A stretch of DNA of 64,000 nt from Bilabrum cf. latius (taxonomy: Eukaryota): positions 248,001-312,000 of the forward strand of contig OZ237766.1 of assembly GCA_965178125.1 (NCBI GenBank), given 5' to 3'. The notes below the pieces were generated by a model that saw only the letters and a program-made list of their open reading frames with translations, was not told the origin of the DNA and ran no database searches. The position numbers and the translations under genes were made by a program. Numbering within the stretch: position 1 is the first letter of the stretch; the number at the start of each line of letters is the position of its first letter. Below are positions 31,178 through 63,960 of this stretch, piece after piece.

Positions 31178-31831
31178 AAGACGACAGCTCCATGGACTCG
31201 GCTTGTAGAGGTTTATATTCTGTGAACTCAACTCAAAAGCGAACGCTATCACGAAGCCGCATCTGCAACGAGGACCCGAGAAATGCCTTGACGTTGGCGA
31301 CCGCCACGGCGAGGTTGTTGTTCTCGGCTGCCCCTACAGCCAGGCTGGCAAAGTCCTCCCGGACCGCCCTTGCGAGCGCCCGTTTGGCCTTCGCTGCAGC
31401 CCTCCTCGATCCCTTCGAGACAAAATCGAGGATCCTTGAGTGGTCCTGCATGACCCGTGAGTACATAGTGTGGTACACACGCTGTTCCCCGCGCACGTGC
31501 TGGTGCTTAGAAACAGAAGCCCACAAGAGGCGCGCATTGACATGGCGAGTCGAAACCCGCCGCCCCTTGTCCTCCTACCTACTCTTCCGCGCCTTGTCGA
31601 GCAGACACAATCGCCCTGACAGCCTGGCAGTAGAGTCTGACGTTTCGGTTCCATTCGGAGCCTCGAGCCTCGAGCGGTCAGCATTGCACCATATCTTGCC
31701 TGGAGTGTATGCATCTGTGGTTACAATGTTTCCTACTCATAAACTATTATAATCTGAGCTGCTGTACTGCCAAACTGCGTCGCAGCCGGGATATGTACAA
31801 TCAATTATATTTGTCTGGATTGCATGGTTCA

Positions 31832-34513: not shown

Positions 34514-34960
34514 TACGGTAGCAGGGTAATACCAAGTGGTGATGGTCCACTGATGGATGCCAACTGAGGATTTTGCTGGAGGAGCCGCCGCCGCATGGCA
34601 TGGCTCTCTGGGAGTGAGCGAGCCGACAGCAATGCCGCAGTCGAGAAGGAGCACCGAATACCGCTAGGGCGTTTGCTTCAATGCGTGCAGTGCAAATACG
34701 TATTTCTGGGAAGGGGGCAGCTGTGATAGCGTCTACATGTCCGTCTACATGTCCACGTCCCAAATTATTATTTGTCTAGATTTCATCACGCTACATAGGT
34801 CGCAACGGTCATCGATCAACATTTAGCCCATACGTGCTAACCAAAGTGATTTAGCTGAGTGTAGCAGCATACGCATATATAAGTTGTTTAGCTGTCCTCT
34901 GTAGAGCAAATCAGGCCGCAAGCGCGGCCCGATCCAAATACACTCGCGCACCCAGCGACC

Positions 34961-40900: not shown

Positions 40901-43900
40901 GCCGGGGTGGGCGGCAAGGGTGCCAAGGGCAAGGCCCGGGCAGCCGCGGCTGCCGCCGCACGTGCTCGTCACCTCGCCCCCGGGACGCAGGAGGCAGAGG
41001 TGCTGATGCAGGTGGAGGGCGGCAAGGTGGTGAGGATGCTGCTCCGGGGGAGGACCCTCCGGAGGGGGTTTCCCTTCCTGTACCCCGCCTGCCCCTCGGG
41101 GCTCTGGAGGCTGCGACCGGTGATGGTGGGGTCGCAGGCACCCCCCCTGCAGTTCGTGAACCTTCACAACACCTCGGACACGGACGCTTTCTACGCGATC
41201 GACCCGGCTCCGTTCTGGTCTTCAGCCGCTGCAACGGACGGCCTGCCTCCCTTCTCGGTTCCGCTGGAGGGGCGCCGCGGTTTTGTCCCCGCGGGCGGTG
41301 AGGTGGCCATACCCGTGGTGGCCAATCCCACGGAGGCGGGCGAGTCGTCCTGCGAGATGAGGGTTCGGTGGACGTTCGGGGACAGGTCGCACCCGTTCTG
41401 CCGGGTGGTGGAAGGCAGGCTCGGGCTCGGTGGCAGCCCGTGTGCCGACGAGGTCAGCGGGGCGGAGGGGGAGGAGGAAGAGGCGGTGGAGTCGCACTTG
41501 TCACACCAGGGGCCCAGCTGGGGGGAGGATCTAGACGACCTGCCACCGAGCGTGGAGGCCGGCGGCCGCCGGTGGAAGGAAGCCCACGGCGCACTCGTCA
41601 CACGAGTCATGAGAGAGAGGAAAGAGGCCCTGGGACTCGATGCGGGGAACATCGCCGTACCGCGGCCCGGTCCGTTGCTGCCCAGCGGCGCCTCCTCGGT
41701 GCTTGGCAACGGGTGGGATGTGTCCGTTCGGCTGCTGTGCCGGGGATACCTGTCGCCGGAGGCGTCTCTTGGGGGGCCCGCTTCGGCCAACTCGGAGTCG
41801 AAAACAGACGACCGCGGTGCCGATTCGAGCGCAGCCCAGGCAGCCGCTGTGGCCGAGCCGGCGATCCGGGAGGACCCATCGCCGGCCCCCGTGCTGCCAG
41901 GGCTGCAGAGCTGGTCGCATCTGGATCGGGCGCTGGGGTGGCAGCTCGCCGGTACTGACGTCACTGCGGAACTAGCTGCGGAAGCTGCGATACGCAAGGC
42001 GAGCGTGGCAGCGGCGGAGGGCCGCTCGGGATCAAACCGGAAAGCGCTGGCGACCGCATCAGCATCAGCATCAGCATCAGCATCGGCTGCTCCAGAAGGT
42101 CAAGGAGGCAAGCTCTCGTCACACCTGCTGGGAGGTGCCATCGGGGCGGCACTTCGCAGAGCAGACTCTAGAGTGAGGGGACTCGAGGTGGGCTCCCCCG
42201 AGGACGGGCCCATGAGCGTGAGGCATGCAGCGGAGATGGCCGTGGGGCAGGCGGGGCCCGCGGTGGCACCACCGGCCGCCGGGAGAGTGACCGGAAATGA
42301 CTCGGAATCCAAAGAGACCCTGCAGGCGCAGGGGCACCTCACGCGGGTTCGTGCCCTCCTGTAGGCTTGTTCCCTGGAAGCACCCCCCTTGGACGGTGGT
42401 GACGGCGCGGGGGGGTATCCCATGGTGGGACCTGAACGATCCGTGGAGAGCGCATTGGAATCCATGCAGTCGAGGTCTCCCAGGGAACAACAACGGGGTG
42501 GTCGTGGCGGTGGTGGTGGTGATAACGGGAACGACCCCTCGGTGGGGTCATCCTTCCCCCAGGGAACAATGGTCCCCTACGCCCCCCTGGACGCCCCCGA
42601 CGCCCACGTGCCCCCCTCCCACAGAGATTCCCCCGACTGCCCCGCGCCCTCCCTTGCTCTTGTGCCGAGGCGGGCGGTGCCCATGGTGCCTGCCCCCGGT
42701 GCGTTATCGGCTGACTTCTTCGGTGCGGAACCGCCCCTGGTGCGGTGCGCGGCGTGGCCCGCCCCATGGTGCCCCGAGGGGATGGCCAGTCTCAGCGCCG
42801 AGGAGGTTCCGCTGGGGGACCTGCCCTTCGGCGGCGCCGCGCATCGGCTGGTGGTGCTGCGGAACCACAGGAAGGGCGGCCTGGCTCGCTCCAAGGCGCT
42901 CGGGTGGGTCCCGCCGGATCAGCGGCGCGACGGTTCCGCAGGCGCCGCGCATTACCCGCCCGGTCCCGTGGAGGAAGGCGGCTGGCTCCGATTCGCCTGG
43001 GAATCCACCCCCGCCCTGACACTGGGTGGCGGGGGGAGCAGCGTGAGCGTGCATCCGCCCAGCGGCATGATCCCGCCCGGAGGTGCCGTTCTGTGTCGGA
43101 TCACCTGTGTGGGTCCCTACGCGGCGGTTGCAACCGACGGATACCTGTCCTGCGTGGCGGCCGTGCCCGAGGAAGAGGTGGCCAAACTGGTCGCGGTCCG
43201 TGCCAGGGAACAAGCCGTCCTGGCCCGCAGGCGAGCCGCCCGGGAGGCGGCCCGCCCCCCCGACCCCAAGCACGTCCCAGTTGCAACCAGGAGCACCCAG
43301 GCCAGGGAGCTTCGGGTCGCCGCCAGCGCGCACCATCGGGACCTCAAGGCCACCTCCATGGCGAGGAAGCACATCGCCCCGCCCAAGTCCCCCTCTGTCG
43401 TGAGCAGGGAGAGGTCCAGATCCAGGGGCAGGGGCGGTGGGCGCAACTCCGATGCCGGGTCCTTTGCGGCGCCGCGCAGTTTTGCGGAACCTATCGAGGA
43501 GCAGGATTCGCTCGATTCGATCGGGCTCGCGGCTGGGATCGAAGGCGGCAGCAGCAGCAACGTCGACGACGGCGGCGGTTTCGGGGGCGGCGGTTCCGTG
43601 TCTTCCGTCAGCCGGGCGATGATGAAAGGTGTCGGCGGCGGCAGCAGGCGAACCAGGGGCGGTGCTGGAATCAACACTCCCAGGCATCCGGGCGGGGCCG
43701 CGGGTGGCGGGAACGGCTCCGTGGCCTCTGGGCAGTCCCAAGCCCTGGCTGAACTGGAGAGGGCGGGGCGGCCGGTGCGAAACTCTGTTCCCTCAGTACC
43801 TGTGACGCAGACGCTCAAGCTGCCCGCAAACCGGAAGAGGGCGCGCCCACGGGTCGTGGTCCGCGGCGGGGTTGCGACCATCGACGAAGACGCGCTGGCG

Positions 43901-45127
43901 CGGGAGGACGAGGAGGCCCCCGCCGAGGACGCGGGGGATGTGCGGGCTCGGCTGGCCGTGGCGGCCGCGCGGGAAGCCGCTGGCCTTGACGGATCCGACG
44001 GTGGTGACCCGGAGGACGACGATGAAGATGAAGATGAAGACCAGGTGCCCCCTGGTGCGAGGAGGAGCCCGCACGTCGCCGTGGCGATCGCCCGGTCCAG
44101 GGCCAGCGGCTCCAGGGGGAAGCGAACGAGGGGGGGTGCTTCCGAGGGGGGTCGTAGCAAGATGTCCATGGGCCTGCCTGCTTCTGCCATGGGTTAGAAG
44201 GCACCGCAGTCGCTGGCTGTGCCTCCTCCCGTTCCACCCGCGGTGCGGCTGATGCTTCGTGTGAGGGCACGCGTGCTCTCGCCCGACGATTTCGATGCCG
44301 TGCACGGGGCCAGCAGGAGGGCTTGCTTCGTCACGGTGCACGAAGAGGCAGCCGTGGCGGGTGCCAGCGCGGGCGGTGATGCGGAACATGTGCCGACGGC
44401 GCCGCGCATCGGGGATCTCCCCGGCGGGGCACAGGCCCTGGTGCCGCCCTCGGCGGATGCGCTTGCCAGGCAGCACGTGCACGGGCTGCTGCTGGCACCC
44501 GGTAGGGGTGGTCAAAGTGGTGGCGGCGGAGAGAGCGTTGGGAGTGGTCAAAGTGGCAGCGGCGATGGGGCCATGGCAGTGGTGGACGAGGAGGGCCTCA
44601 GGCAGGCGAGGGGCGAGGCGGCTGCCGAGGCTGCGGCCGAGTCCAGGGGATCCACCGGTGGATTGCTGGGTGTGCTGGCGAGGGATCTGATGGAAATGCT
44701 CGCGGCGGACGCGGCAGGTTCCGCTGATGTGCGCGGCGCCGATTCAGGTGGTGCCACTGGCGCGACGTTCGCGGAAGTGTCCGCGGAGATGCGCGCGCCC
44801 CTTCCGGGTGACGCCGCAGGCACGGGACACTTAGAAGGTGCATCGCACGATTGTGCTGGTGGTGATGGTGATCCCGATGGGGCCGATCCGATCCCAGGAG
44901 GCTGCGAAGACCGCGCCTGGGCCATGTGCCAGCCAGAGGGCCGTGCCCTGTGCGCGGGTGTGGTGGAGAATGCACTGCGGCTGGTCATCGGGGATGCAAT
45001 GGGAAGCGCGGAGGGGGCGGGGGCCTTCTTGGCCGAAGGAGAGACGCAGGGCGATGGTGCTGGAACTGAGGGTGGGCGAGGTGGTTATCGCCCGCTTGCT
45101 AGTCGGGCTGTGCTGCTGGACGGGTGA
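34961..45127 (+). CDS. CFAP65: Cilia- and flagella-associated protein 65-like (ASH/MSP Ig-like domains), ~3388 aa, apparently intronless
   Basis: WRPGGEYIKKLQVKNVG...YALPASKFFSMDFPEP and repeated LDFG...LRN modules. Five ORFs joined by TAG at 36368, 37379, 42362 and 44195. TGA stop. Confidence 0.8.
37739..37826 (+). repeat. (GGTGCT)n hexamer repeat (Gly-Ala) in the CFAP65-like gene
   Basis: Perfect tandem run. Confidence 0.95.
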
Positions 45128-47183: not shown

Positions 47184-48415
47184 TTATGTACTCGACCCTG
47201 CTGCCTGCAGCATGGCAACGCACTCGTCATGCCCCCCCAGCCTGGCTGCCTCCAATGGTCTCACCACCCTGGTCCCGCCGGCCCCATCCTCCACCTCGCC
47301 CTTGATCTCCAGTCCGCCCGCCAGCTTGCCCAGCTTCAGCCTCTTCGCAAGCTCCATGGGCCTGCCCTCAGCAGCTGCCCTGAAGACTCTTCCAGCGTCC
47401 CTCTTGGCATCGACCGCCCGCCTCCATTTGGCCAGGTGTCCCACCCAGGGGGCGTAGTACCTCAGCAGCTTGGCAGCTTCAAAGTGCCCGTTGTTGAATG
47501 CCACGTGATACGGGTATTTTCCAAACTGTGGTGCTTATAACGGGTGTCTCATAATCTGGCGACAGCAAGATACGCTGCATGCATACGCGCGGCGCTGCAA
47601 TCCCATCCGTGTTCTTGCAGCACATTGAATTGTTGAATGATAGGTGGTAAACGCATACGCTAGCTGGAATTCCATCCGCGGCTCGATTAATGCCAACCAC
47701 TCGCCCCGCGCGGCTGAGGCTGCTAGAAGCTCACCCTAGTAACTGCGTGTATGTCGGCACCTAGGACCAGCAGCCTACGTATCACCACGCAGTCTCCTCG
47801 AGTTCCTGCGTAGTGCAATGCCGTAAACCCACCCTGCACGAACATGATTAGAACAAGATCTCGATATGCGTGACCTCCAAAACAAGGGATCGCAACGAAA
47901 ATATCGACATGCCAAGGTACTGCACAGAATAACGCATCGAATGAGTACTTCTGCCATCAAAGTAAATCTATGTATGCTCTCACATGGTTGCCCCAGTTCA
48001 CGCGTGCGCCTGACCTTACTAGCAACCCGCAAATATCAGCGTGGCCATTCATCGCGGCGCCCATCAACGGAGAAGCTTCTCGCCTTGTCTACGCAGATCA
48101 CAACGAATTACACATGCATATTAGATACATTCCAGTCGGCAACCCTACCAGACGTGCGAAGTGTGTTTCGGCGCGTGCCAGATCCGGGTGCCCGAGAACG
48201 GGGCGCTCTCGTCAGAGGCTCACATGATGCGGCATGAGCAGAGCCGCGCCACCTCTGATTATCTCTTCGCATTTAGCATAGTCGCCATCGCTGGCTGCTT
48301 TGGTTAGCGCAATACGTGTATCGTCATGATTCTCCGCCGTAGGAGCGGGTTGCACTCCACCAAACACTCCCTGCGGCATGGCCGGCGGACCCGCCCTGCA
48401 TTCGTAAGTGGCCAT
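47184..48415 (-). CDS. Short ankyrin-repeat protein; exons 48415-48224, 48088-47984, 47833-47735, 47525-47184
   Basis: Phase-0 exons SPLMGAAMNGHADIC and TALHYAGTRGD...LGADIHA. Terminal exon is paralogous to 48700-49041. TAA stop. Confidence 0.8.
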
Positions 48416-48699
48416 TTTGTGAGTCACACTGAATTCGTATCAGTCATTCGGTAAGACATCTGACAAAAAATTGGATTATCTTACATTCACGGGTACGGGT
48501 CAATCTCAAAAGATGTTGTCGCTGGCGGTCCTGGTGCTTAGCAGTGCACTGCAGTTGCACCAGAGGGCAGTTACGATGACTGTTGTCCATCGGCAGGCCA
48601 ACAATGTCTCCAGAAGTTACGCACGGAGAACCCAATAAACGCTGGCATGCGTCACTCTGCCGCCTCCTCGAGCAACCTCACACACTCGTCATGCCCAGA

Positions 48700-51600
48700 T
48701 CACCCCATCGCCTCCTCGAGCAACTTCACGCACTTGTCATGACCCCCCAGTTGAGCTGCCTCAAGCGGACCTAGCACCCTGGCACCGCTCCGAGTCGATC
48801 CGTCCTTCAGCTGGCCCTTGATCTCCAGCCCGCCTGCCAGCTTGCCCAGTCTCAGCCTCTTTGCCAGCTCCATGGGCCTGCCCTCAGCAGCTGCCCTGAA
48901 GACTCGCCCAGCGTCCCTCCTGGCCTCGACCGCTCTCCTCCACAGAGCCAGATACACCCACCGGGGGGTATACGTTTCTAGTTGTCTGGCAATGTCATGG
49001 TGAGACGTTCGGTATGCGACATCGATCGAAGTTTCACCATTCTGCATATATTTGTATGCAGGTTATGAAATAATGTCTCACTAAATTGGTTTATTCGTTC
49101 AGCCGACAGGCAGATGCACGCGTTTGCATCAATAATTTGTCAGTAATAAAATAAAAAAAATCATCCTGAACATAAAAAAGCGTGATGTGAAAACAAATCC
49201 AATGCGAACTCACATTCGCGCACGCTCTCGGCCGCGCCCCCTTGGACAGCAGCAGCTCGCACACGGAGGCATGGCCGTTCCCGGCAGCCAGACTGAGCGG
49301 CGTGTCTCCTTCCTGCAAGGGATCTCATATAGAACAAATACCGAACAAAGCTACGCAGTGCCCAGAGCCGCGCACTACACGATTTCTACACATTTATCAC
49401 CATGTCTACCTCAGGCCAGTCTGTCGCAGCCTTGCAAGTATCAGGCCTATACTTGCAATCGGACCCAGCTGACCATACAGCTAGCTCATGGTCGAGGCAT
49501 ACATAACATGGCCCGCACTCGGTTGTAGCGAGTGGTTGCGTATGCAAGGACTGCCCTCGAGTGGAGCCGTGGGCAGCAACACCAACCATGGTTAGAACCA
49601 CAGTCTAGATGAGGATCTCACTCTGTCAATTCTGTCGACCATCGCCCCCTTGGACAGGAGCAGCTTGCACACTTCGACGTGACCATCTCCAGCAGCCAGA
49701 CCGAGAGGCGTGAATCCATCCTGCAAGGGAACTCATATAGAACCAATACCGAACAAAGCTACGCAGTGCCCAGAACGGCGCACTACACGATTTCTACACA
49801 TTTATCACCATGTCTACCGCAGGCCGGTCTGTCGCAGCCTTGCGAGTATCAGGCCCATACTTGCACTCGGATCCAGACGCCCATACAGCTAGCTCGTGGT
49901 CGAGGCATACATAACATGGCCCGCACTCGGTTGTAGCGAGTGGTTGCGTATGCAAGGACTGCCCTCGAGTGGAGCCATGGGCAGCAACACCAACCATGGT
50001 TAGAACCACAGTCTAGATGAAAATCTCACTTCATTACTCTCGATGTTTGCCCCCTTGGACAGGAGCAGCTCGCACACTTCGGCATGGCCATTCTCAGCAG
50101 CCAGACCGAGAGGCGTGCATTCATCCTGCAAGGGAACTCATATAGAACCAATACCGAACAAAGCTACGCAGTGCCCAGGGCCGCGCACTACACGATTCCT
50201 ACAGCAGTATCACAATGTCTTCCTCAGGCCAGTCTGTCGCAGCCTTGCGAGTATCAGGCCCATACTTGCACTCGGATCCAGACGCCCATACAGCTAGCTC
50301 GTGGTCGAGGCATACATAACATGGCCCGCACTCGGTTGTAGCGAGTGGTTGCGTATGCAAGGACTGCCCTCGAGTGGAGCCATGGGGTCCGACACCATTA
50401 ATGGTAATTCAGGACCACAGTCCAGCTGAAAATCTCACCATGGCAATTGTAGCGACCATCGCCCCCTTGGACAGCAGCAGCTCGCACACGTCGGCATGGC
50501 CATTCTTAGCAGCCAGGCCGAGAGGCGCGTGCACATACTGCAAGGGAACTCATATAGGACCAATACCGAACAAAGCTACGTTGTGCCCAGAACGGCGCAC
50601 AACACGATTTTTACAAAAGTTTTACCACGTTTTCCGCAGGCCAGTCTGTCGCGGTCGAGCAATTACCACGCCTATACAAGTAATCGGATCATGCTGACCA
50701 CACAGCGTGCAGTGAAGAGAGGCATAACATGGCATGCACTCGGCTGTAGCGAGTGGTTCCGTATGCAAGGACTGCCCACGAGTGCAGCCATGGGCTGCGA
50801 CACCATCCATGGTTAGGACCAGAGTCAAGCTGAAAATCTCACTTCATTACCCTCGATCTGCGCCCCCTTGGACAGGAACACCTCGCACACGTCAGCATGG
50901 CCATTCTTGGCAGCCAGACCGAGAGGCGTGTGCTGATACTGCAAGGGAACTCATATAGGACCAATACTGAACAAAGCTACGTAGTGCCTAGAACGGTGCA
51001 CAACACGATTCCTACAAAAGTTTTACCACGTTTTCCGCATGCCAGTCTGTCGCGGTCAATCAATTACCACGCCTATACAAGCAATCGGATCTAGCTGACC
51101 ACACAGCGTGCAGTAAAAGCAGGCATAACATGGCATACACTCGGCTGTAGCGAGTGGTTCCGTATGCAAAGACTGCCCTCGAGTGCAGCCATGGGCTGCG
51201 ACACCATCCATGGTTAGGACCACAGTCTAGATGAAAATCTCACTTCATTACCCTCGATCTGCGCTCCCTTGGACAGCAACAGCTCGCACACGGAGGCATG
51301 GCCATTCCTGGCAGCCAGACCGAGAGGCGTGCATTCATCCTGCAAGGGAACTCATATAGAACCAATACCGAACAAAGCTACGCAGTGCCCAGGGCCGCGC
51401 ACTACACGATTCCTATAGCAGTATCACAATGTCTTCCTCAGGCCAGTCTGTCGCAGCCTTGCGAGTATCAGGCCCATACTTGCACTCGGATCCAGACGCC
51501 CATACAGCTAGCTCGTGGTCGAGGCATACATAACATGGCCCGCACTCGGTTGTAGCGAGTGGTTGCGTATGCAAGGACTGCCCTCGAGTGGAGCCATGGG

Positions 51601-54600
51601 GTCCGACACCATTAATGGTAATTCAGGACCACAGTCCAGCTGAAAATCTCACCATGGCAATTGTAGCGACCATCGCCCCCTTGGACAGCAGCAGCTCGCA
51701 CACGTCGGCATGGCCATTCTTAGCAGCCAGACCGAGAGGCGTGCATCCATTCTGCAAGGGAACTCATATAGAACCAATACCGAACAAAGCTACGTTGTGC
51801 CCAGAACGGCGCACAACACGATTTTTACAAAAGTTTTACCACGTTTTCCCCAGGCCAGTCTGTCGCGGTCGAGCAATTACCACGCCTATACAAGTAATCG
51901 GATCATGCTGACCACACAGCGTGCAGTGAAGAGAGGCATAACATGGCATGCACTCGGCTGTAGCGAGTGGTTCCGTATGCAAGGACTGCCCACGAGTGCA
52001 GCCATGGGCTGCGACACCATCCATGGTTAGGACCAGAGTCAAGCTGAAAATCTCACTTCATTACCCTCGATCTGCGCCCCCTTGGACAGGAACACCTCGC
52101 ACACGTCAGCATGGCCATTCTTGGCAGCCAGACCGAGAGGCGTGTGCTGATACTGCAAGGGAACTCATATAGGACCAATACTGAACAAAGCTACGTAGTG
52201 CCTAGAACGGTGCACAACACGATTCCTACAAAAGTTTTACCACGTTTTCCGCATGCCAGTCTGTCGCGGTCAATCAATTACCACGCCTATACAAGCAATC
52301 GGATCTAGCTGACCACACAGCGTGCAGTAAAAGCAGGCATAACATGGCATACACTCGGCTGTAGCGAGTGGTTCCGTATGCAAAGACTGCCCTCGAGTGC
52401 AGCCATGGGCTGCGACACCATCCATGGTTAGGACCACAGTCTAGATGAAAATCTCACTTCATTACCCTCGATCTGCGCTCCCTTGGACAGCAACAGCTCG
52501 CACACGGAGGCATGGCCATTCCTGGCAGCCAGACCGAGAGGCGTGCATCTATCCTGCAATGGAACTCATGTAGGACCAATACCGAACAAAGCTACGCAGT
52601 GCCCAGAGCCGCGCACTACACGATTTCTACACATTTATCACCATGTCTACCTCAGGCCAGTCTGTCGCAGCCTTGCAAGTATCAGGCCTATAGGTGCAAT
52701 CGGACCCAGCTGACCATACAGCTAGTTCTAGGTGAAGGCAGGCAGAACCTGGCCCGCACTCAGTTGTAGCGAGTGGTTGCGTATGGAAGGATTACCCTCG
52801 AGTGGAGCCATGGTCCGCGACACCACCCATGCCAGTGGTTTGGAACACAGTCCAGCTGAAAATCTCACCATGGCAATTCTCTCGATCCGCGCCCCTTTGG
52901 ACATCAGCAGCTCGCACACTTCGACGTGACCATGTCCAGCAGCCAGACCGAGAGGCGTGCATCTATCCTGCAAGGGAACTCATATTGGACCAATACCGAA
53001 CAAAGCTACGCAGTGCCCAGAGCCGCGCACTACACGATTTCTACACATTTATCACCATGTATTCCGCAGGCTAGGCTATCGCAGTCTTGCAAGTATCATG
53101 CCTATACAAGCAATCGGATCCAGCTGACCATACAGCTAGCTCATGGTGAAGGCAGGCATAACATGGCATGCACTCGGTTGCAGCGAGTGGTTCCGTATGG
53201 AAGGATTGCCCTCGAGTGGAGCCATGGGCAGCGACACCATCCATGGTCAGGGCCACAGTCTATCTGGAGGGCTTACCTTGCGATGTGTCTCAATCTGCGC
53301 CCCTTTGGACAGGAGCAGCTCGCACACTTCGGCATGGCCATTTCTGGCAGCCAGACCGAGAGGCGTGTGCAGATACTGCAAGGGAACGCATGTAGGACCA
53401 ATACTGAACAAAGCTTCCAGGTGCCCAGGCCGCGCACTACACGATTCCTACACACAAGTATCACCATGTTTACCTCAGGCCAGTCTGTCGCAGTCAAGCA
53501 AGTATCAGGACTATACTTGCAATCGGATCCAGCTGACTATACAGCAAGAGCACAGTACAGGCAGGCATAACATGGCCCGCACTCGGTTGCAGCGAGTGGT
53601 TCCGTATGCAAGGACTGCCCTCGAGTGGAGCCGTGGGCTGCGACACCATTAATGGTCAGGACCACAGTTTAGATGCAAATCTCACCCTGCGATGTCTCTC
53701 GATGTTTGCGCCATTGGACAGCAGCAGCTCGCACACGTCGGCATGACCATTATCAGCAGCCAGACCGAGAGGTGTGAATCCATCCTGCAAGGGAACGCAT
53801 GTAGGACCAATACCGAACAAAGCTACGCAGTGCCCTGGGCTGCGCACTACACGATTCCTACACAAGTATCACCATGTTTACCTCAGGCCAGTCTGTCGCA
53901 GCCTTGCAAGTATCAGGCTCATACGAGCAATCGGATCCAGCTGACCATACAGCAAGAGCATAGTAAAAGCAGGCAGAACCTGGCCCGCACTCGGTTGTAG
54001 CGAGTGGTTCCGTATGGAAGGACTGCCCTCGAGTGCAGCCATGGGCTGCGACACCATCCATGGTTAGGACCACAGTTTAGATGCAAATCTCACCCTGCAA
54101 TATTCCTCGACCTGCGCTCCCTTGGACAGCAGCAGCTCGCACATGGAGGCATGGCCATTCCTGGCAGCTAGGCCGAGAGGCGTGCATCTATTCTGCAAGG
54201 GAACGCATGTAGGACCAATACCGAACAAAGATCCGCAGTGCCCTGGGCCGCGTACTAAACGATTCCTAGATCTACACAAGTATTGGACTACCATGTTTTC
54301 CTCAGGCCAGTCTATCGCATCCTTGCAAGTATCAGGACTATAGGCGCAATCGGATCAAGCTGCACATACAGCTAGCTCTTGGTGAAGGCAGGCATAAGAT
54401 GGCCCGCACTCGGTTGCAGCGTGGTTTCGTATGGAAGGATTACCCTTCAGTGGAGCCATGGGCTGCGACACCATCCATGGTTAGGCCCACAGTCTATCCA
54501 AAGATCTCACGTTGTCCTTGGCGTCTATCTGCGCCCCCTTGGACAGCAGCAGCTCGCACACGTCAGCATGGCCATTCTTGGCAGCTAGGCCAAAAGGCGT

Positions 54601-57277
54601 GATTCCATCCTGCAAGGGAACGCATATTGGACCAATACCGAACAAAGATACGCAGTGCCCTGGGCCGCGTACTAAACGATTCCTTCACAAGTATAACCAT
54701 AATTGCCTCAGGCTAGTCTGTCGCAGCCTTGCGAGTATCCGGGATCAGGCCTATACGTGCAATCGGATCCAGCTGACCATACAGCAAGCGCACAGTGAAG
54801 GCAGGCACAACATGGCCCGCACTCGGTTGTAGCGAGTGGTTTCGTATGGAAGGATTGCCCTCGAGTAGAGCCAAGGGCTGCGACACCATTAATGGTCAGG
54901 ACCACAGTTTATCTAAAGGTCTCACGTGGGTCTTGGCCTCGATGTTTGCTCCCTTGGACAGGAGCAGCTCGCACACTTCGGCATGGCCATTCTCAGTAGC
55001 CAGACTGAGAGGCGTCTATCTATTCTGCAAGGGACCGCATGTAGGACCAATACCGAACAAAGCTACGCAGTGCCCAGAACGGCGCTCAACACGATTCCTA
55101 CACAAGTATCACCATGTTTACCTCAGGCCAGTCTGTCGCATCCTTGCAAGTATCAGGCCCATACGAGCAATCGGATCCAGCCGATCATACAGCTAGCGCG
55201 CAGTAAAGGCACGCATAATATGGCCCGCACTCGGTTGTAGCGAGCGGTTCCGTATGGAAGGTTTGCCCTTCAGTGGAGCCATGGGCTGCGACACCATCCA
55301 TGGTTAGGATCACAGTCTAGATGAGGATCTCACCCTGATGGTTCCATCAACGCTCGCCCCCTTGGATAGCAGCAGCTCGCACACTTCGGCATGACCATTC
55401 CGGGCAGCCAGACCGAGAGGCGTGCATCTATCCTGCAAGGGAACGCATATTGGACCAATACCGAACAAAGATACGCAGTGCCCTGGGCCGCGCACTACAC
55501 GATTCCTACACAAGTATCACCATGTTTACCTCAGGCCAGTCTGTCGCAGCCTTGCGAGTATCAGGCCTATACTTGCAATCGGATCCGGCTGCATATACAG
55601 CTAGCACACAGTGAAGGCAGGCACAACATGGCCCGCACTCGGTTGTAGCGAGTGGTTCCGAATCGAAGGTTTGCCCTCGAGTAGAGCCATGGGCTGCAAC
55701 ACCATTAATGGTCAGGACCACAGTCTAGCTGAGAAGCACATTTCACTTACCTCGATGTTTGCTCCCTTGGACAGCAGCAGCTCGCACACGTCGGCATGGC
55801 CATTTCTAGCAGCCAGATCGAGAGGCGCGTGCACATACTGCAAGGGAACGCATGTAGGACCAATATCGAACAAAGCTTCGCAGTGCCCTGGGCCGCAAAC
55901 TACATGATTTCAACACAAGTATTGCCATGTTTTCGTCAGGCCAGTTTGTCGCAGAGTATCAGGCCTATACGTGCAATCAGATCATGCTGCCCATACAGCT
56001 AGCGCACAGAAAAGCAGGCATAACATGGCCCGCACGCGGTTGTAGCGAGTGGTTTCGTATGGAAGGATTGCCCTCGAGTGCAGCCATGGGCTGCGACACC
56101 ATCCATGGTTAGAACCACAGTCTAGATGAGGATCTCACCCTGATGGTTCCATCAACGCTCGCCCCCTTGGATAGCAGCAGCTCGCATACGGAGAACTGGC
56201 CATTCTCAGCAGCCAAACCGAGAGGCGTGTATTCATCCTGCAAGGGAACGCATGTAGGACCAATACTGAACAAAGCTTCCAGGTGCCCAGAGCCGCGCAC
56301 TACACGATTCTTACACAAGTATCACCATGTTTTCCTCAAGCCAGCCTGTCGCAGCCTTGCAAGTATCAGGCCTATACGTGCAATCGGATCCAGCTGACTA
56401 TACAGCAAGCGCACAGTGAAGGCAGGCATAACATGGCCCGCACTCGGTTGTAGCGAGTGGTTCCGTATGGAAGGACTGCCCACGAGTGCAGCCATGGGCT
56501 GCGACACCATTAATGGTCAGGACCACAGTCTAGCTGAAAATCTCACCATGCCAATTCTGTCGACCTTCGCCCCTTTAGACAGCAGCAGCTCGCACACGTC
56601 GGCATGACCATTCCGGGCAGCCAGACCGAGGGGCGAGTGTTCATCCTGCGTGGGAAGCACGAGGGGAGCAGATTTGAAGTTAGATAGACAGGTAGTGCCC
56701 TGAACCATGCAGTGCACGCTACCTACGCCAGTCCCAACCGTGGCAGTCAAAACCTTGAAAGCTGCAGAATGGTCAAAGTCCAGGCACGTTCATTACATGT
56801 ATGAGGCCATTCAGCTAGCTCGCCTGCAACGGCACACACCTACTAGTAAGCCACAGCCGGTAGGGACGAGTGATCTACCAGGCAGTGCATCACCTCCTTT
56901 GCGATCATTAGCTAATACATTGCCAATGGTGAGTATGTCAGTGAACTTGCTTATCTCACCTTGCTCATGGACTCTATCTGCGCCCCCTTGGACAACAGCA
57001 GCTCGCATGCCTACTTCCATCCATTTGCTGCTGCTTTTCCCAGGGCTGACCAATTAAACTGCGATATTTTCGCAAGATACAGCGATCACATATTCGTGTT
57101 AGCACTCAGTTAATCATTGCAATGATCATAAGAGACGCAAGATGCACGCATGGACCTACCTCCGCCTCGTTCTTTTCCTCGATCGTAGCAACAACTTCAT
57201 CTCTGCCTAGCAATTCTACAAGTTCTTCTTGATTCGTCAATGCATCATGCAGCTCCTTTCCGAGCTAGGATAAAGGC
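48700..57277 (-). CDS. Ankyrin-array protein: N-cap exon (~57277-57161), 20 single-repeat ankyrin exons (57058 down to 49214) and terminal exon 49041-48700
   Basis: Exons of 99, 96 or 87 nt, all phase 0, with cag| acceptors and |gtgag or |gtaag donors. Consensus xxxTPLGLAAxNGHAxVCELLLSKGAxIxxxxx. TGA at 48700. First exon not located. Confidence 0.9.
49214..56645 (-). repeat. Tandem array of 19 exon+intron units, period ~400-420 bp
   Basis: Recurrent intron text (ctgcaagggaac...gaacaaagctacgcagtgccc...ggcccgcactcggttgtagcgagtgg...ctcac on the + strand). Confidence 0.95.
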
Positions 57278-58047
57278 CTGCAATTCGTGAAGTAATGACG
57301 TGCGTTGACAAATATTTGACACAACGTGGTAGCCAATCTTCGCACTATCCTAAATCTAATCCGGATCATGTCGCCTATGAGTCTCACATGACCAACACTA
57401 AGTTTACAGTATCGACAACTTCTGATTAAGGCTTGTAGGTATATATGTATTTGGAGGGCGGTGGGTTGCAGTCTGGTGGGTTGGGCGGAGCGCCGACGGT
57501 TGCAACCATTTTGCCGCGCAAATACGGAACAATGGTCCATGATTGTTCGATTATTTGCTAACTGGCTACAGTAGCCATCGTGTGAAAACTTAGCTTGTAG
57601 TTTTAATCTCACATAGCCATCGGAACCCGCACATCATCATCTGACCCAGCCAGTGCTGCTTCGTGGCCGATCGGAGCCATGCCTCACCGAACCGCAGCCC
57701 GCTGTCAGGCTGATCCGCCGAAGTGGCGTCCAGGTACGCGCTCGTCACACCCTTCAGCGCCCTGGCGCGCAGGATCCGCCGGAGCTGGTCCGCCGCGCGA
57801 TCCTGCTCGTGGGTGGTTCCGCTGGACTGCGAGGGGTCGGGGGCGATGCTCTAGACTTGGCTGGATGTGTGCACTGGAAAACAATTGAAACAATTCAACC
57901 AATCAAACCATGGTATACGAGCTATCAAATCAATCCACAGAAGAGACTTAAACCAGGGACCCACGACACACGCGAGGTCATGCAATCCCCCGCAGCCCGA
58001 TCCACCAGCACGCACCACAGCCTGCTGGCCAAGGCCCCACCCAGCAA

Positions 58048-61000
58048 TCACTCCCTCGGCACCTCACACTGCATTTTGCCCAAGGACATATTCACGTACA
58101 TCACATCCCCATCATCTCCCACCATGCGTTTCCAACCAGGCGGCAGGGGCGGTGCTGGTGGCCTGACCCCCTCCCTCCTCTCCGCCGGCACCCATCGCTG
58201 TTCCCTGGGCCCCGACCATAACCCGCTCCCCCCCTCACCGTACGCACTCGTCACACGGGCCAGAGAGGCCACGTGCCCACCCACCCTCCCGCTCGCACCA
58301 TCCCGCCCCAGCAGCTCCCGCCGCAGGTGCCTGTCCCACAGCGAGGCCTCACCTGCCACCAGAGGACGCACCCGGCCCAGCACGCCCTCCACGCCCCACC
58401 CGAAAATCGCCCGCGTGCCTGCGCTCGGGGGCCGCAGCACGGCCATGGGCCCCGCCTGCACCACGGCCCGCTCGGCCTCCCCGCGGTCCTGCAGCACGCC
58501 GGCCCCCACTGCCTCGGCCAGCTCCCCCTCGAAGGCATGCCCGCCCACCACGCCCATGGAAAGACCATCCACTGCCCCGGCCACCTCACTCGTCACACTG
58601 CCTCCCCCCTCCACCGCCCCGTCCCTGGCAATTGGCCCCAGCTCGTCCGCGGCCCGCAGCACTGCCTCCTCCATCAGCAGGTCAGCGGCTGTCTGGCCAG
58701 AGGATTCGGAGCCATCGGCGGGGAGTATTGGTGCTGGTGCTGGTGCTGGTGCTGGTGCTGGTGCTGGTGCTGGTGCTGGTGCTGGTGCTGGTGCTGGTGC
58801 TGGTGCTGGTGCTGGTGCTGGTGCTGGTGCTGGTGCTGGTGCTGGTGCTGGTGCTGGATCGTCTGCCCCTGCCCCGCTCGCAGCAGGGCCACGCTCCTGA
58901 GGTGCCGCTGCAGCACCATCATGCGATGCACCCGTCCCCCGCTCCCGCTCCCTCACCGCCTCTCGCCCCACCAGCGAGGCTAGTGGCAGAGGACCCATGC
59001 ACTCGTCAGCATGAGCAAGCAGAGAACGCTGCCCAACCACCCACGCACCGCAAGCCGCATCGTCCACAGACACATCCCCTGCACCTGCACCTACACCTGC
59101 ACCTTTGGAGTCAGACCCGCCCTGTGACGGATGCACCCCTCCCCGCATCAGCACACCCGCGTCCACCGGCCCGTACAGCATCCCCATCAGCGCCCCGATG
59201 GCCTCCTCCTGGGGAACACGGGACCGGGGGTGGGCCTAAAGCAGGCCCCGCAGCACGGCCTCCAGAGCAGGGGGACAGTCCGCCTGACTGGGCAGCCGAG
59301 GGATGTCCCTGTCTCCGTACATGCTCTCGGGGTCCGGCAGAGACACGAGTGCCCCGCCCCCGGCATGCGCCTGCTCCGCCATCAGCTCCCACACCATCTT
59401 GCCTGCTGCCCACGCATCGCTGGAAGCATACGCCTGCGCCAGCGTGCGCATGGGTCTGTCCCACGCGTCAGTCACCTGCCCCCCGCTGGCCCTTCGCCTC
59501 ACCTCTGGGGCCATGGCACCCATGCCCCCCTGCATGCTCAGCACAGAGACCGCCAGCAGGTCGGGCTGAGCGTCCTTGCCGCAGCCCACGAACGGCCAGG
59601 CGGTCGATGATGGTGGTGAGGATAATGACGGTGATCCAGATGATGGCAATGCACCCTTGCTGCCCTCCTCTGTTGCAGCCGTGGGTGCAGCTGGTGGCCC
59701 CGATGGTGCGGCAGTAGGCACCTGCTTGCTGGATCCTGCAGGCGCGCTAGGATCGTCCTCGCCCTCTTCCACCACGAACACGCCCGGGTCCGACTCTTGC
59801 ACCTCTACCTGCTTTCCTGAGGTTGCATCCGGGGCTGTAGTCGATGATGCCCCGGCACCTGCTGCAGAGCTTGATGCTGCAGTCGCACTTGAACCCGACA
59901 GGCTTTCACCAGCCCGCTCGTCCTGCTCCTGCTGCATCATGAGGTTGATGCGGGCCCTCAGCGTCTCGTCCACCTTCACTCTCAGCCCGCCCTCAAACAG
60001 CAAACAACCCTCCCCCCAGTCGCCCAGCACGGCCCGACCGTCCGCCGTTAGAAACACGTTGTCCGCCTTCACGTCCCGGTGCACCACCCCGCGGGACCGG
60101 GCGTGCTGCAGGCCCTGCAGCACCTAAAGCAGCCACAGAGCCGCCTGCCGCCCCGAGATCATGCCACCTGCCCGCAGCGCCGCTTTCGCCGCCCCCTGCA
60201 GCGTGGTGGGGAACCGCTCCGTCAGCATCCAGGTGGTGCGCCTGCGGGGGATCCAGCCGAACCAGGGCAGCATCAGCTGCGTTGAGCCCAGCCAGGCGTG
60301 GTGCACGGCAAGCACATTCGGATGCCCGTGCAGCACCACTCGCCCCCTACTGTCCACTCGATCCCCCAGCACCCTCGGCAGCAGCCAGTCGTGCTGCTGT
60401 TTCTGCGCCACTCCAGCGTAATAGTCCCGGTCTGGACCCCCCGAGGTTGACCCCTTCAGCACCAGGTGCTGCCAGCCGGCCCACGGGTTGATGCCTGACC
60501 CAGCTCCACCATCGTGCGGTGCACCCTTAGCACCACCATCCGGTGCATTGGGCTAGTCCACAGCCACCACGGCAAAGACCAGCCCGTTGCACCCCTGGCC
60601 CTCCGCCGCCTGCTGCCCCGCCACGGCCCCGAAGACAGACCCGTCCCAGAACAGAGGCCTCTTCCTGCCCTGCTGCCCCGCCTCCAGCCGACCGGGAGTG
60701 CCCCCCCGTCGCTGGCTCTGGCCCCCGTCCTGCACCCGGATCCACCAGGCTCCGCTCCACTCGGCCCCCAGCCGCTCCAGCACGCTCACATCACCGACGC
60801 TGCTGGGGTCCATGTGCGCGGGCTGTGAGCCAGTGGCTAGGATGAGCTTGGGCCGTGGATGGTGCGCGGTGAGGTCGCCAGAAACGGGTCCGTTGGCGGG
60901 CTGATTGCGGGACAGCACCGCCTCCATGTGGGCCTGGGGCAGGGTAGAATTGGGCGTGTCAGGGTCTGCCGGGCTGGCTCTGGCAGCGGCTGCCTGGGCC

Positions 61001-63960
61001 AGTCGGACGCCGGCGTGCTGCAGGGCGTACCGGGCTTGGGCGGTAGCTGTACACCTGGATTTGAATAACTGCAGCTCACCACGGCACACGAGTAGCTTGT
61101 ACCTTGTGATCGCCTCTTCTTGAATGGCACGCAGATTGGCACTCGATGCCGAAGTTGACAGTGTGATCTCACTGGCCTACTTCGCGATTTGTACCGTGTC
61201 CAATCCCTGCACAATTGGTATGCCGGAAGTATCGCACAGCTTTAGTAGCAGATAGAGCGACAATGTGGATGACCCCTGCCCTCTGGTCATGGCGTCCTTG
61301 AAGCCGTTTGGGGCGTCGTCTGGGACCAACTGGGCGGGAATCTTTCCATCATTTGACTTGGATGTTGTGCTAGCTCCGTGATGAAGCAAGGCAACTGCGC
61401 ATCCTACATGCTTATTCATACATGCATTATGGAGCGAGGCTTTGCTCTACTTGTTATTGGCCTCGATCTGCGCCCCCTTGGACAGCAACAGCTCGCACAC
61501 GGATGCACAGCCATTGAAGGCAGCTAGTGCGAGGGGCGTGTTTCCATCCTGCGAGGGACTCACGAGGGGAGCAGACCTTAACACAGCTAGGCAGTGCCCT
61601 GGTACAGGCATCGCAGCAGAAATACACCGATCGAAAGCATATCCATCACAGGCCAGTCAGGTGCACCCAAGCCAGCTCCAAGTCCATCCACGACTTGCAT
61701 CAAACCAACCGGCTGGCTTCCTCGCTAGCCAACACGTATCTAGGCCTCAGTCAAAAGGAGCGAGTGACCTTCACTGCCGCGTCGCATGTAGTGGAATCAT
61801 TGGATGTGCCTCGGGCGATTTGAAGACAGACAGTATGCATGCATATCTCACCTTGCTCTTGGCCTCGATCTGCGCCCCCTTGGCAAGCAGCAGCTCGCAC
61901 ACAGAGGCATGGCCCTTGGCAGCAGCCCATGCGAGGGGCGTGTCTTCATTCTGCGAGTAACTCTGGAGGGGAGCAGACCTGAACAAAGCTAGGAAGGGCC
62001 CTGATACAGGCATCGCAACACAGATATACCAATCGAAAGCATGGCCACCACAGTTCAGTCAGGCGCACCCAAGCCAGCTTCAAGCCCGTCCACGACTTGC
62101 ATCAGACCAACCGGCTGATTTGCTCGCTAGCCAACCAGCATCTAGGCCTCAGTCAAAATCAGCGAGTGACCTTCACTGCTGTGTGGCATGGTGTGGAATC
62201 ATTGGATGTGACACGGGCGATTTGAAGACAGACAGTATGCATGCATATCTCACGTTGTTCTTGGCCTCGATCTGCGCCCCCTTGGACAGCAACAGCTCGC
62301 ACACGGATGCATGGCCATTCCTGGCAGCCTATGCGAGGGGGGTATTTCCGAACTGCGAGGGACTCATGAGGGGAGCAGACCTTAACACAGCTAGGCAGTG
62401 CCCTGGTACAGGCATCGCAGCAGAAATACACCGATCGAAAGCATATCCATCACAGGCCAGTCAGGTGCACCCAAGCCAGCTCCAAGTCCATCCACGACTT
62501 GCATCAAACCAACCGGCTGGCTTCCTCGCTAGCCAACACGTATCTAGGCCTCAGTCAAAAGGAGCGAGTGACCTTCACTGCCGCGTCGCATGTAGTGGAA
62601 TCATTGGATGTGCCTCGGGCGATTTGAAGACAGACAGTATGCATGCATATCTCACCTTGCTCTTGGCCTCGATCTGCGCCCCCTTGGCAAGCAGCAGCTC
62701 GCACACAGAGGCATGGCCCTTGGCAGCAGCCCATGCGAGGGGCGTGTCTTCATTCTGCGAGTAACTCTGGAGGGGAGCAGACCTGAACAAAGCTAGGAAG
62801 GGCCCTGATACAGGCATCGCAACACAGATATACCAATCGAAAGCATGGCCACCACAGTTCAGTCAGGCGCACCCAAGCCAGCTTCAAGCCCGTCCACGCC
62901 TTGCATCAGACCAACCAGCTGGTTTGATCGCTAGCCAACACGTATCTAGGCCTCAGTCAAAATCAGCGAGTGACCTTCACTGCTGTGTGGCATGGAGTGG
63001 GATCATTGGTTGTGACACGGGCGATTTGAAGACAGACAGTATGCATGCGCATCTCACCTTGTCCTTGGCCTCGATCTGCGCCCCCTTGGACAGCAGCAGC
63101 TCGCACACTGAGGCATGACCATTCAAGGCAGCATGTGCAAGGGGGGTGTCTCCATTCTGCGAATGACTCTGGAGGGGAGCAGACCTGAGCAAAGCTAGGA
63201 AGGGCCCTGGTACAGGCACCGCAGCAGAAATACACCGATCGAAAGCATATCCATCACAGGCCAGTCAGGTGCACCCAAGCCAGCTTCAAGCCCGTCCACG
63301 ACTTGCATCAGACCAACCAGCTGGTTTGATCGCTAGCCAACACGTATCTAGGCCTCAGTCAAAATCAGCGAGTGACCTTCACTGCTGTGTGGCATGGAGT
63401 GGGATCATTGGTTGTGACACGGGCGATTTGAAGACAGACAGTATGCATGCGCATCTCACCTTGTCCTTGGCCTCGATCTGCGCCCCCTTGGCCAGCAGCG
63501 GCTCACACACGGAGGCATGGCCATTCCTAGCAGCCAGTGCGAGGGGGGTGGTTCCATTCTGCGAGGGACTCATGAGGGGAGCAGACCTGAACACGACTAG
63601 GCAGGGTCCTGGTACAGGCATCGCAACACAGATATATCAATCAAAAGCATAGATACCGCAGGCCAGTAGGGTGCACCCAAGCCAGCTTCAAGCCCGTCCA
63701 CGCCTTGCATCAGACCAACCGGCTGATTTGATCGCTAGCCAACCAGCATGTAGTCCTCAGTCAAAAGGAGCGAGTGACCTTCACTGCCGTGTGGCATGGA
63801 GTATGGCCATTGGATGTGACCTGGGCGATTTGAAGACAGACGGTATGCATGCGCATCTCACCTTGTCCTTGGCCTCGATCTGCGCCCCCTTGGACAGCAG
63901 CAGCTCGCACGCCAACTTCCAGCCGTTTGCTGCAGATTTAGCCAGTGCTGCCCACTGATG
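58048..63960 (-). CDS. Ankyrin-array + PINK1-like protein kinase + C-terminal WW domain; 5' end lies beyond the window
   Basis: Ankyrin exons start at 63960, 63558, 63156, 62754, 62352 and 61950, then a long exon 61548-58048 read through TAG 61447, 61177, 60553, 60124 and 59236. Motifs GQGCNGLV, VLK, HPNVL, HRDVKADN, DWG, GGMGAMAPEV, DAWAAG. WW LPPGWKRM...YVN. TGA stop. Confidence 0.9.
58730..58857 (+). repeat. (GGTGCT)n hexamer repeat (Pro-Ala on the coding minus strand)
   Basis: About 21 perfect units. Confidence 0.95.
61450..63960 (-). repeat. Tandem array of exact 402-bp units (99-nt ankyrin exon + 303-nt intron)
   Basis: Exon starts are spaced exactly 402 bp. An 804-bp two-unit block is nearly identically duplicated. 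Confidence 0.95.

Follow-up and report, generated by a model that had tools for sequence, protein, structure and literature searches.

A tandem array of one-repeat ankyrin exons in Bilabrum cf. latius, with fast-evolving beta-turn and helix-1 codons that are probably under diversifying selection

Analysis of a 64,000-nucleotide window from Bilabrum cf. latius (assembly GCA_965178125.1, contig OZ237766.1, positions 248,001 to 312,000; all coordinates below are those of the window) enabled the identification of a minus-strand gene in which 19 successive exons each encode a single ankyrin repeat. The scaffold of these repeats is clearly under purifying selection, with a ratio of nonsynonymous to synonymous rates (omega) of 0.2-0.3, and the codons of the loop and of helix 1 change faster than any silent class of sites. 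At the loop and helix-1 codons omega is about 2-2.5 and is likely to exceed 1, on p values of about 0.01-0.05 and a partition of codons made by eye. Diversifying selection, i.e. positive selection rather than relaxed constraint, is in our judgement the probable cause, with substantial room for doubt, and the variable ankyrin surface may have a binding function in which the range of ligands is diversified.

Results

One ankyrin repeat per exon

Tandem Repeats Finder detects a repeat of period 408 at 49235-56656 (18.2 copies, 83% matches, score 8592). Over 49214-56645 of the minus strand 19 exons could be placed, with AG and GT borders throughout and every one in phase 0. Their lengths are all divisible by three (13 of 99 nucleotides (nt), five of 96 nt and one of 87 nt), and the 18 internal introns measure 301-318 nt each (about 309 nt), giving a unit of about 408 bp. 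Each exon corresponds to one ankyrin repeat: all 19 pass the Pfam PF00023 gathering threshold of 21.1 bits, with scores of 23.1-35.8, and the exon register is that of model positions 1-33, so that exon start and end coincide with those of the repeat model. The repeats stand in direct succession in one polypeptide, as neighbouring exons are joined in frame by splice joints in contigs of two sequencing runs, X5 and X6. Neither TGA nor TAA occurs in frame in any of the 19 exons. The array and its exons, all on the minus strand, are as follows, with the evidence in brackets.

49214..56645, minus strand: ankyrin exon array, 19 exons and 18 introns (Tandem Repeats Finder, AG/GT borders, Pfam PF00023)
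56547..56645, minus strand: ankyrin exon 1, DEH...RIGM (borders, splice joints, Pfam)
56139..56237, minus strand: ankyrin exon 2, DEY...GTIR (borders, splice joints, Pfam)
55751..55837, minus strand: ankyrin exon 3, 87 nt, YVH...NIE (acceptor joint seen; donor GTAAGT predicted)
55334..55432, minus strand: ankyrin exon 4, DRC...GTIR (borders, splice joints, Pfam)
54926..55024, minus strand: ankyrin exon 5, NR[TAG]...AKTH, with TAG at 55016-55018 (joints on both sides, hence spliced in)
54511..54609, minus strand: ankyrin exon 6, DGI...AKDN, the most canonical repeat (borders, joints, Pfam, PDB alignment)
54094..54192, minus strand: ankyrin exon 7, NRC...EYCR (borders, splice joints, Pfam)
53686..53784, minus strand: ankyrin exon 8, DGF...RHRR (borders, splice joints, Pfam)
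53277..53375, minus strand: ankyrin exon 9, YLH...THRK (borders, Pfam)
52869..52967, minus strand: ankyrin exon 10, DRC...RIAM (borders, splice joints, Pfam)
52458..52553, minus strand: ankyrin exon 11, 96 nt, DRC...GNE (borders, splice joints, Pfam)
52057..52152, minus strand: ankyrin exon 12, 96 nt, YQH...GNE (borders, Pfam)
51653..51751, minus strand: ankyrin exon 13, NGC...TIAM (borders, Pfam)
51244..51339, minus strand: ankyrin exon 14, 96 nt, DEC...GNE, a chimera made by duplication (borders, copy comparison, Pfam)
50843..50938, minus strand: ankyrin exon 15, 96 nt, YQH...GNE, identical to exon 12 (borders, Pfam)
50439..50537, minus strand: ankyrin exon 16, YVHA...TIAM, a copy of exon 13 that differs in codons 1-4 and at one synonymous site (borders, copy comparison, Pfam)
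50030..50125, minus strand: ankyrin exon 17, 96 nt, DEC...SNE (borders, Pfam)
49622..49720, minus strand: ankyrin exon 18, DGF...RIDR (borders, Pfam)
49214..49312, minus strand: ankyrin exon 19, EGD...ACAN (borders, Pfam)

A first-pass annotation of this DNA, made without database searches, had described a near-fixed framework with strongly variable residues in 49214..56645, and both parts of the description are confirmed, the latter by the pairwise differences given below. In an alignment of 17 repeats, P5, A9, G13, C18, L21, G25 and A26 are invariant and eight further columns are at least 90% conserved; over their whole length the repeats are 58-73% identical to the first. All of the variants then named are present (13 N-terminal triplets, seven pairs at residues 11-12 and ten C-terminal strings), the Q of NRQ being written as TAG; RIAM, SNE, ACAN and the short exon 3, with its final NIE, can be added to them.

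The ancestral donor of exon 3 seems to be lost, the homologous place (55722-55750) reading AT instead of GT, and the predicted donor of the exon is a GTAAGT created 12 nt upstream, which makes the repeat 29 residues long; a joint at this donor is not among the joints listed. At exon residue 3, which is ankyrin position 5 in the hairpin, seven of the 19 repeats carry Cys and six carry His, and His, Cys and Met are also frequent in the last four repeat residues. A metal-binding or redox role of the ankyrin groove is conceivable from this composition.

Variable residues lie on the beta-turn and helix 1

Residues 1-32 of one exon align with residues 103-134 of the ANK-N5C-281 chain, and residues 2-32 of the same exon align with DARPin repeats, placing exon Gly2 on the DARPin turn Gly. 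In PMC4308713, Asp167 and Gly170 of ANK-N5C are positions 1 and 4 of internal repeat V, and the positions randomised in the library (PDB 4O60/4QFV) are 2, 3, 5, 10, 13 and 33, in beta-turn 1 and helix 1. From these alignments and this numbering, exon residue p equals ankyrin position p+2, and therefore the splice junction falls between turn positions 2 and 3, which bears out the earlier claim that the junction lies within the beta-turn.

The fastest exon codons (2, 3, 11 and 30-33) thereby become ankyrin positions 4, 5, 13, 32, 33, 1 and 2, and the variable residues overall occupy positions 1-5, 13 and 32-33, where the beta-turn lies and helix 1 starts. Of the six positions that the ANK-N5C library randomised, four (2, 5, 13 and 33) rank with the fastest, at 3.2-5.6 nonsynonymous changes per site; the values are 2.6 for position 3, 0.75 for position 14 and 0 for position 10. 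The DARPin-like mapping proposed in the first-pass annotation therefore stands as far as the beta-turn and helix-1 placement is concerned, but not in its particulars. The Asp at position 1 (exon residue 32) is kept in two of the 19 repeats and the Gly at position 4 (exon residue 2) in five, and both codons have a posterior of 1.00 for the fast class of a site-class model. Repeat and loop length also varies (29, 32 or 33 residues), position 10 is fixed and position 14 is nearly fixed as Asn.

Position 14 is one of those randomised in DARPins. The array shares with the DARPin and ANK-N5C libraries a 33-residue repeat, a fixed scaffold, a variable beta-turn 1 and helix-1 start and presumably a continuous concave surface, and the agreement extends to the fast positions 2, 5, 13 and 33 and to the variability of position 3. 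It differs from the designed libraries in being natural and intron-split, in its varying loop length, and in its fixed position 10 and mostly Asn position 14. Moreover, the libraries keep Asp1 and Gly4 to hold the turn, whereas here these are among the most variable positions.

Rates of change and selection at the variable codons

The mean pairwise nucleotide difference among repeats is 0.40 for codons 1-3, 0.30 for codons 11-12 and 0.47 for codons 27-33, as compared with 0.126 for the framework and 0.150 for the introns. Parsimony on three trees gives 3.3-4.0 nonsynonymous changes per site for 12 variable codons, 1.0-1.3 changes per site for introns and 1.85-2.1 for framework synonymous sites, so that the variable codons evolve at 2.5-4 times the intron rate and about 1.8 times the framework synonymous rate. 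In the site-wise comparison that the first-pass annotation had proposed as a check on diversifying selection, the variable codons thus exceed both introns and silent sites. At codons 1 and 3 parsimony places 22 changes, all nonsynonymous and at first or second positions, with no synonymous change and none at third positions, which speaks against loops that are simply free to vary.

Relaxed constraint combined with recombination is the most serious alternative to positive selection. Under it the loops would be free to vary, the introns and the framework would be homogenised or constrained, and conversions and small insertions and deletions would pile up at exon ends. We regard this alternative as unlikely, though as deserving considerable weight, and several results lend it support. 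Site models show how closely it can imitate selection. In our own implementation of site-class models, the likelihood-ratio test (LRT) statistic of model M2a against M1a is 54.2 (53.9 on another tree), 42.1 for codons 1-29 only and 43.0 without exons 3, 14, 15 and 16; omega of the positively selected class is 4-5.8, and codons 2, 3, 11, 30, 32 and 33 are flagged. The code behaves as expected in controls, with an LRT of 1.02 for framework codons alone and values of at most 1.98 in 11 of 11 data sets simulated under M1a. However, when neutral data were simulated with the histories of the exon ends shuffled relative to the framework, the LRT was 12-42 in four of five replicates, the fifth being unconverged, and an earlier neutral replicate of this kind gave 22.7. 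Because neutral evolution with recombination mimics the statistic, the site-model LRT alone is no evidence of selection, and we rejected it as proof.

Tree-free estimates are more robust to recombination. With the pair distance shared over the whole exon, pairwise estimation gives an omega of 2.5 for the nine codons of the first-pass annotation and 0.3 for the rest. The corresponding null was simulated in four settings of 60 replicates, with and without shuffled histories; its 95% quantile was 1.6 in all four, with maxima of 2.0, 2.0, 2.0 and 2.5, so that the observed value was matched in at most one of 240 replicates, which argues against relaxed constraint. So does partition maximum likelihood on fixed trees, in which omega of the variable codons is 2.5-2.7 with a shared synonymous rate and stays above 1 with their own rate (1.7-2.3; p = 0.004, 0.005 and 0.044); omega of the framework in this analysis is 0.21-0.25. 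In tree-free pairwise maximum likelihood by segment, omega is 12 for codons 1-3 and 12 for codons 30-33, the null probability (0.023 for a value of 8 or more) applying to codons 1-3 alone, and it is 0.45 for codons 27-29, which are constrained. For all 12 variable codons it is 1.6, or 2.0 without the duplicated exons.

A number of points weigh against positive selection. The null probability of reaching 1.6 for the 12-codon set is 0.11-0.16. With a local synonymous baseline, counting methods put the ratio near 1 (0.8-0.85 by Nei-Gojobori, 0.85-1.16 by parsimony), as relaxed constraint would have it, and for the nine codons the local-baseline omega is 2.0 at a transition/transversion ratio (kappa) of 4 and 1.6-3.2 over kappa 2-6, with p of about 0.05, the value of 2.0 being equal to the 95% quantile of its null. 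The codons were picked by amino-acid variability or by eye, which biases omega upward: choosing the best nine of 12 neutral codons yields a median omega of 1.25 and a 99% quantile of 2.5. All of the repeats compared are paralogues of one genome. Finally, framework synonymous sites evolve about twice as fast as introns, which again fits the relaxed-constraint account, and the introns, being slower, may be constrained or homogenised and are not a clean neutral yardstick. The first-pass claim of diversifying selection thus finds partial support in the recombination-robust omega of about 2-2.5; the site-model statistic cannot be relied on for it, the local baseline is borderline, and codons 27-29, at the start of the C-terminal variable segment, are constrained.

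The 18 array introns (49313-56546) change at about half the framework synonymous rate (1.0 versus 2.1 changes per site) and contain strongly conserved blocks with pi of 0.05-0.09. Consensus folding of 15 of the 18, three duplicate introns being omitted, gave no support for conserved intron structure (covariation -0.8 kcal/mol, 3 of 68 pairs compensatory).

A recent duplication copied whole loops

Exons 11-13 and 14-16 are the product of a recent duplication of three units, the copies of which are the following.

51311..52548, minus strand: older copy of the three-unit duplication, from exon 11 codon 3 to exon 14 codon 9 (copy comparison)
50097..51334, minus strand: younger copy of the three-unit duplication (intron distances 0-0.7%)

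Over about 1,240 bp of exons and introns the copies differ by three intron differences, one synonymous framework difference and one cluster. The cluster comprises codons 1-4 of exons 13 and 16 (51740-51751 versus 50526-50537), where a substitution and two 2-nt changes, one of them a deletion and the other an insertion, turn NGCT into YVHA; the letters TGCAC are read in two frames in the two versions. Exons 16 and 3 have their first 19 nt in common, so that microconversion from a repeat of the YVHA type and a newly arisen compensated frameshift are equally likely. Either way, the difference between exons 13 and 16 is one clustered complex event and not several substitutions, which speaks for relaxed constraint with recombination, as does the weak correlation between distances of exon parts and of introns (rho -0.21 to 0.28; the value for N-terminal codons and the upstream intron over all units is 0.28, weak and in the expected direction). 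On the other side, every change of exon length has preserved the frame: reading continues through differences of -3 and -12 nt and through the -2/+2 event.

Identity between the copies begins after codon 2 of exons 11 and 14 and ends at codon 9 of exons 14 and 17, so that the breakpoints are framework codons 3-9, and one unequal crossover inside the conserved TPLGLAA codons would explain both ends of the duplication. With both ends of the duplication in the framework, GNE|YQH and TIAM|DEC were copied as whole loops together with the introns that split them. This contradicts the earlier suggestion that each new exon pairing builds a new loop: in the one duplication that can be dated, both loop halves and the intron moved together. 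The listed splice joints, 15 of 23, likewise offer no new exon pairing, as none of the 15 skips an exon and all follow genomic order.

Gene model and splicing

Three exons upstream of the array and one downstream complete the gene model.

57388..57574, minus strand: upstream exon, 5' extent approximate (joint skipping 57278-57387 (GT..AG) in X5/X6; depth in bin 57368-57574)
57160..57277, minus strand: 118-nt exon, the G of ATG and 39 codons (PLSQLGKELHDALTNQEELVELL...), one in-frame TAG (joints on both sides in X5/X6)
56960..57058, minus strand: N-cap-like degenerate ankyrin exon (FNWSALGKAAANGWKQACELLLSKGAQIESMSK), one in-frame TAG (joints skipping 57059-57159 and 56646-56959)
48700..49041, minus strand: last exon, 113 codons and TGA, a half-repeat and a conserved C-terminal module (WRRAVEARRDAG...LLEEAMG) (acceptor, frame, loose ends with the junction of exon 19 to 49041)

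The first in-frame ATG is split across the 57388/57277 junction, AT coming from the upstream exon and G from the next, and the in-frame stop that precedes it is one other than TAG. The cap exon gives a weak, sub-threshold match to Ank_3/Ank_2 (17 bits on Ank_3), and Pfam searches of the exon at 57160-57276 and of the last exon returned no match. No domain other than ankyrin was found by Pfam in the exons of the gene; in particular there is no nucleotide-binding oligomerization (NOD) domain, for which the gene model would leave no room. An Rfam search of 48500-57600 was also without a match. Given TAG as a sense codon, the gene is, as predicted from its sequence, an intact spliced open reading frame (ORF) of about 804 amino acids composed of ankyrin repeats alone, the product of which is presumably cytosolic.

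The evidence for splicing comes from contigs of runs X5 and X6, whose RNA nature is a guess, no run being recorded as RNA; the contigs were placed directly on 52400-58600 only, the 3' half of the array and a second array (see below) lying outside this segment. The contigs cover exons and leave out introns, and minus-strand GT..AG joints occur at the predicted borders of ten introns, namely the three upstream of the array and array introns 1, 2, 4, 5, 6, 7 and 10; array introns 3, 8 and 9 have no joint among those listed. By our own reading of displaced joints and inserted letters against the exon table, junctions 15>16, 16>17 (or 13>14), 17>18 and 18>19 are also spelled out, and the junction of exon 19 with the last exon is spelled by loose ends in X5/X6. 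Run X3 covers the whole stretch contiguously and has none of the 15 listed joints.

As all 19 exons are symmetric and in frame, they could in principle be skipped or chosen to produce many isoforms with new loop pairings, and alternative splicing of repeat exons has a precedent in brown-algal ROCO genes (PMC11378527). We consider such combinatorial splicing improbable here. The joints listed for X5/X6, including the displaced ones, all link neighbouring exons, although this is weak evidence against exon skipping, because assembled contigs lose rare isoforms and the listing covers 15 of 23 joints.

TAG as a sense codon

The in-frame TAG of exon 5 raises the question of whether the array is a decaying pseudogene, transcribed but broken at this stop. 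Further TAGs in two upstream exons, the non-canonical turn residues and the shortening of one exon after donor loss could be read in the same way. Elsewhere in the window, however, conserved ORFs are interrupted by TAG alone, for which reason we take the exon 5 TAG to be a trait of the organism and not gene damage. A CFAP65-like frame at 34892-45127 (plus strand) contains four single TAGs as its sole interruptions and ends in TGA; a kinase frame at 61176-58048 (minus strand) has three TAGs as its sole interruptions; and an ORF chain at 5208-8324 (minus strand) is joined across one. The TAG at residue 493 of the CFAP65-like protein lies inside an end-to-end match to Pfam Ig_CFAP65_4th (residues 446-520, profile positions 1-76 of 76), and a TAG of the kinase aligns with a conserved Gln of EGFR and PINK1 (PDB sequence search, E 0.01; none at 1e-10). 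In the ankyrin genes themselves, in-frame TAG is found in array exon 5, in two upstream exons and in one exon of the second array, and every in-frame stop, including all three in ankyrin exons, is TAG, none being TGA or TAA. TAG thus behaves as a sense codon in this organism, most plausibly for Gln. The tRNA scan found no tRNA gene in the window. With no TGA or TAA in the 19 exons, intact splice sites and a framework omega well below 1, a pseudogene is extremely improbable. The two ankyrin genes end in TGA (48700) and TAA (47184).

Related ankyrin genes, database relatives and neighbours

The array gene is one of a cluster, at least two arrays and a third gene sharing the tail module being found within 17 kb. 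The second array is the following.

61451..63960, minus strand: cap exon at 63862-63960 and six ankyrin exons, period 402 (61450-63910 in Tandem Repeats Finder; exon comparison)

The cap exons at 56960-57058 and 63862-63960 are paralogous, and the scaffold of the two arrays is nearly the same; the introns of the second cannot be aligned with those of the first. Within the second array, if one pair of nearly identical units is set aside, intron differences amount to 4-13.5% and exon differences to 13-20%, with most of the exon change in eight codons. Between its units v2 and v4, for example, the intron differs by 4.0%, the exon by 16% and a set of eight variable codons by 46%. A small third ankyrin gene at 47184-48415 (minus strand) has ankyrin-like exons followed by the C-terminal module of the array gene (WRRAVDAKRDAG...) at 47184-47426. 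The module also occurs in three database proteins (P0001-P0003) that have other N-terminal parts and lack arrays.

Searching with an exon and its flanks retrieved no close protein relative of the array but only generic ankyrin proteins of at most 56% identity (four matches among nine candidates). In metagenomes, none of 44 loci had a repeat spacing of about 400 nt, and all were at most 66% identical over the full repeat; where repeats recurred they were contiguous at 99 nt, i.e. the genes are intronless. The best PDB sequence matches of a single exon are chains of ankyrin-1 and ankyrin-2 (4rlv, 5y4d and 7tw3). For a DsbA-like ORF, the closest database proteins reach 39% identity.

Other genes of the window include the kinase gene that lies between the two arrays (58048-61176, minus strand). 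Among solved structures its sequence comes closest to PINK1 chains (E 5.6e-08), and it carries long low-complexity inserts as well as a (PA)n tract, which a hexamer microsatellite at 58729-58857 encodes. Two related ORFs in opposite orientation (22939-24189, plus strand, and 30571-31212, minus strand) contain repeated bulb-type (B_lectin) lectin modules, with a Pfam match for the first only. The ORF chain at 5208-8324 (minus strand) runs to 1038 codons, with an N-terminal match to the CD36 family and a C-terminal hydrophobic stretch.

Discussion

Comparison with known repeat systems

The literature searched, which included few subscription journals, yielded no account of an ankyrin array that has one repeat per exon and hypervariable loops. 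Many animal ankyrin repeats are encoded by 99-bp exons, and the 24-repeat membrane-binding domain of animal ankyrin-R/B resembles the array in being a long uninterrupted ankyrin solenoid. The animal proteins are nevertheless large spectrin-binding adaptors with further domains and old, diverged repeats, whereas in the array gene no further domain accompanies the repeats, which are young paralogues whose introns can still be aligned.

A similar logic has been described for two groups of putative receptors. Fungal NOD-like receptors (NLRs) from Podospora and others likewise have tandem ankyrin, tetratricopeptide (TPR) or WD repeats on a conserved scaffold. According to PMC4986451, their highly internally conserved repeats exceed 85% identity across 100 or more amino acids, lie C-terminal to NACHT or NB-ARC and are polymorphic in number between isolates. 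The present array differs in its 58-73% identity to the first repeat, in the absence of a detected NOD domain and in having each repeat on a separate exon. In brown algae (Ectocarpus and kelps), LRR-ROCO and NB-ARC-TPR receptors, the former built on leucine-rich repeats (LRRs), are encoded with one repeat per short exon of constant length and symmetric phase. According to PMC3341825 and PMC11378527, the genes are clustered and have positively selected sites on the concave face, on PAML-type evidence with acknowledged limits; the LRR exons are of 72 nt and phase 2 (PMC11378527). The tandem one-repeat exons of symmetric phase are shared with our array (here 87, 96 or 99 nt and phase 0). The algal LRR or TPR repeats are fused to ROC-COR or NB-ARC, and inactivated intronic exons and alternative splicing are described, in contrast to the ankyrin repeats in 99-nt phase-0 exons found here, which have no signalling domain, no intronic pseudo-exons that we could see and listed joints that are consecutive. 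The array gene thus appears to work like the fungal NLR and brown-algal systems and is, by our comparison, a member of neither, because it has no NOD or ROC-COR domain, its identity is 58-73% and not over 85%, and its repeats are of the ankyrin type.

A proposed route to a diversified surface

The following sequence of events may be proposed. The gene would encode a cytosolic solenoid made up of an N-terminal exon and a cap repeat, followed by the 19 repeats of the array and a C-terminal exon that carries more degenerate repeats. Unequal crossing-over between repeats, breaking within the conserved TPLGLAA framework, would enlarge the array. Each beta-hairpin loop consists of the end of one exon and the start of the next, and a crossover of this kind would therefore copy the loop as a unit together with its intron. 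After duplication the scaffold would be held by purifying selection, while the loop codons (1-3 and 30-33) and codon 11, the first surface codon of helix 1, would turn over rapidly through point substitution, small in-frame insertions and deletions and short conversion or compensated-frameshift events. Selection would most likely favour different residues in each repeat and so lead to a diversified concave binding groove.

A more far-reaching proposal is that the clustered all-ankyrin family acts as a germline generator of binding diversity, in which intron-centred loop cassettes are re-assorted and multiplied by crossovers in the scaffold and rewritten by short conversions, possibly with a contribution from splicing or somatic events. 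It would then do for ankyrin repeats what exon shuffling does for LRRs in brown algae, or what the assembly of variable lymphocyte receptors (VLRs) does in lampreys. We regard this as doubtful.

Repeat receptors with a fixed scaffold and hypervariable positions have arisen repeatedly, as in plant and animal LRRs, lamprey VLRs, the WD, ankyrin and TPR repeats of fungal NLRs and the LRR and TPR exons of brown algae, and an ankyrin array from a protist lineage, with a single repeat on each exon, would be a further independent example. Neutral evolution with recombination can reproduce in full the signal of the PAML-type test that is common for such arrays. As the introns of the array can be aligned and so date each duplication, it would offer a clean system in which to follow how crossing-over, microconversion and selection build a binding surface. 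The joint inheritance of a loop and its splitting intron provides a testable point on how exon structure shapes what recombination shuffles.

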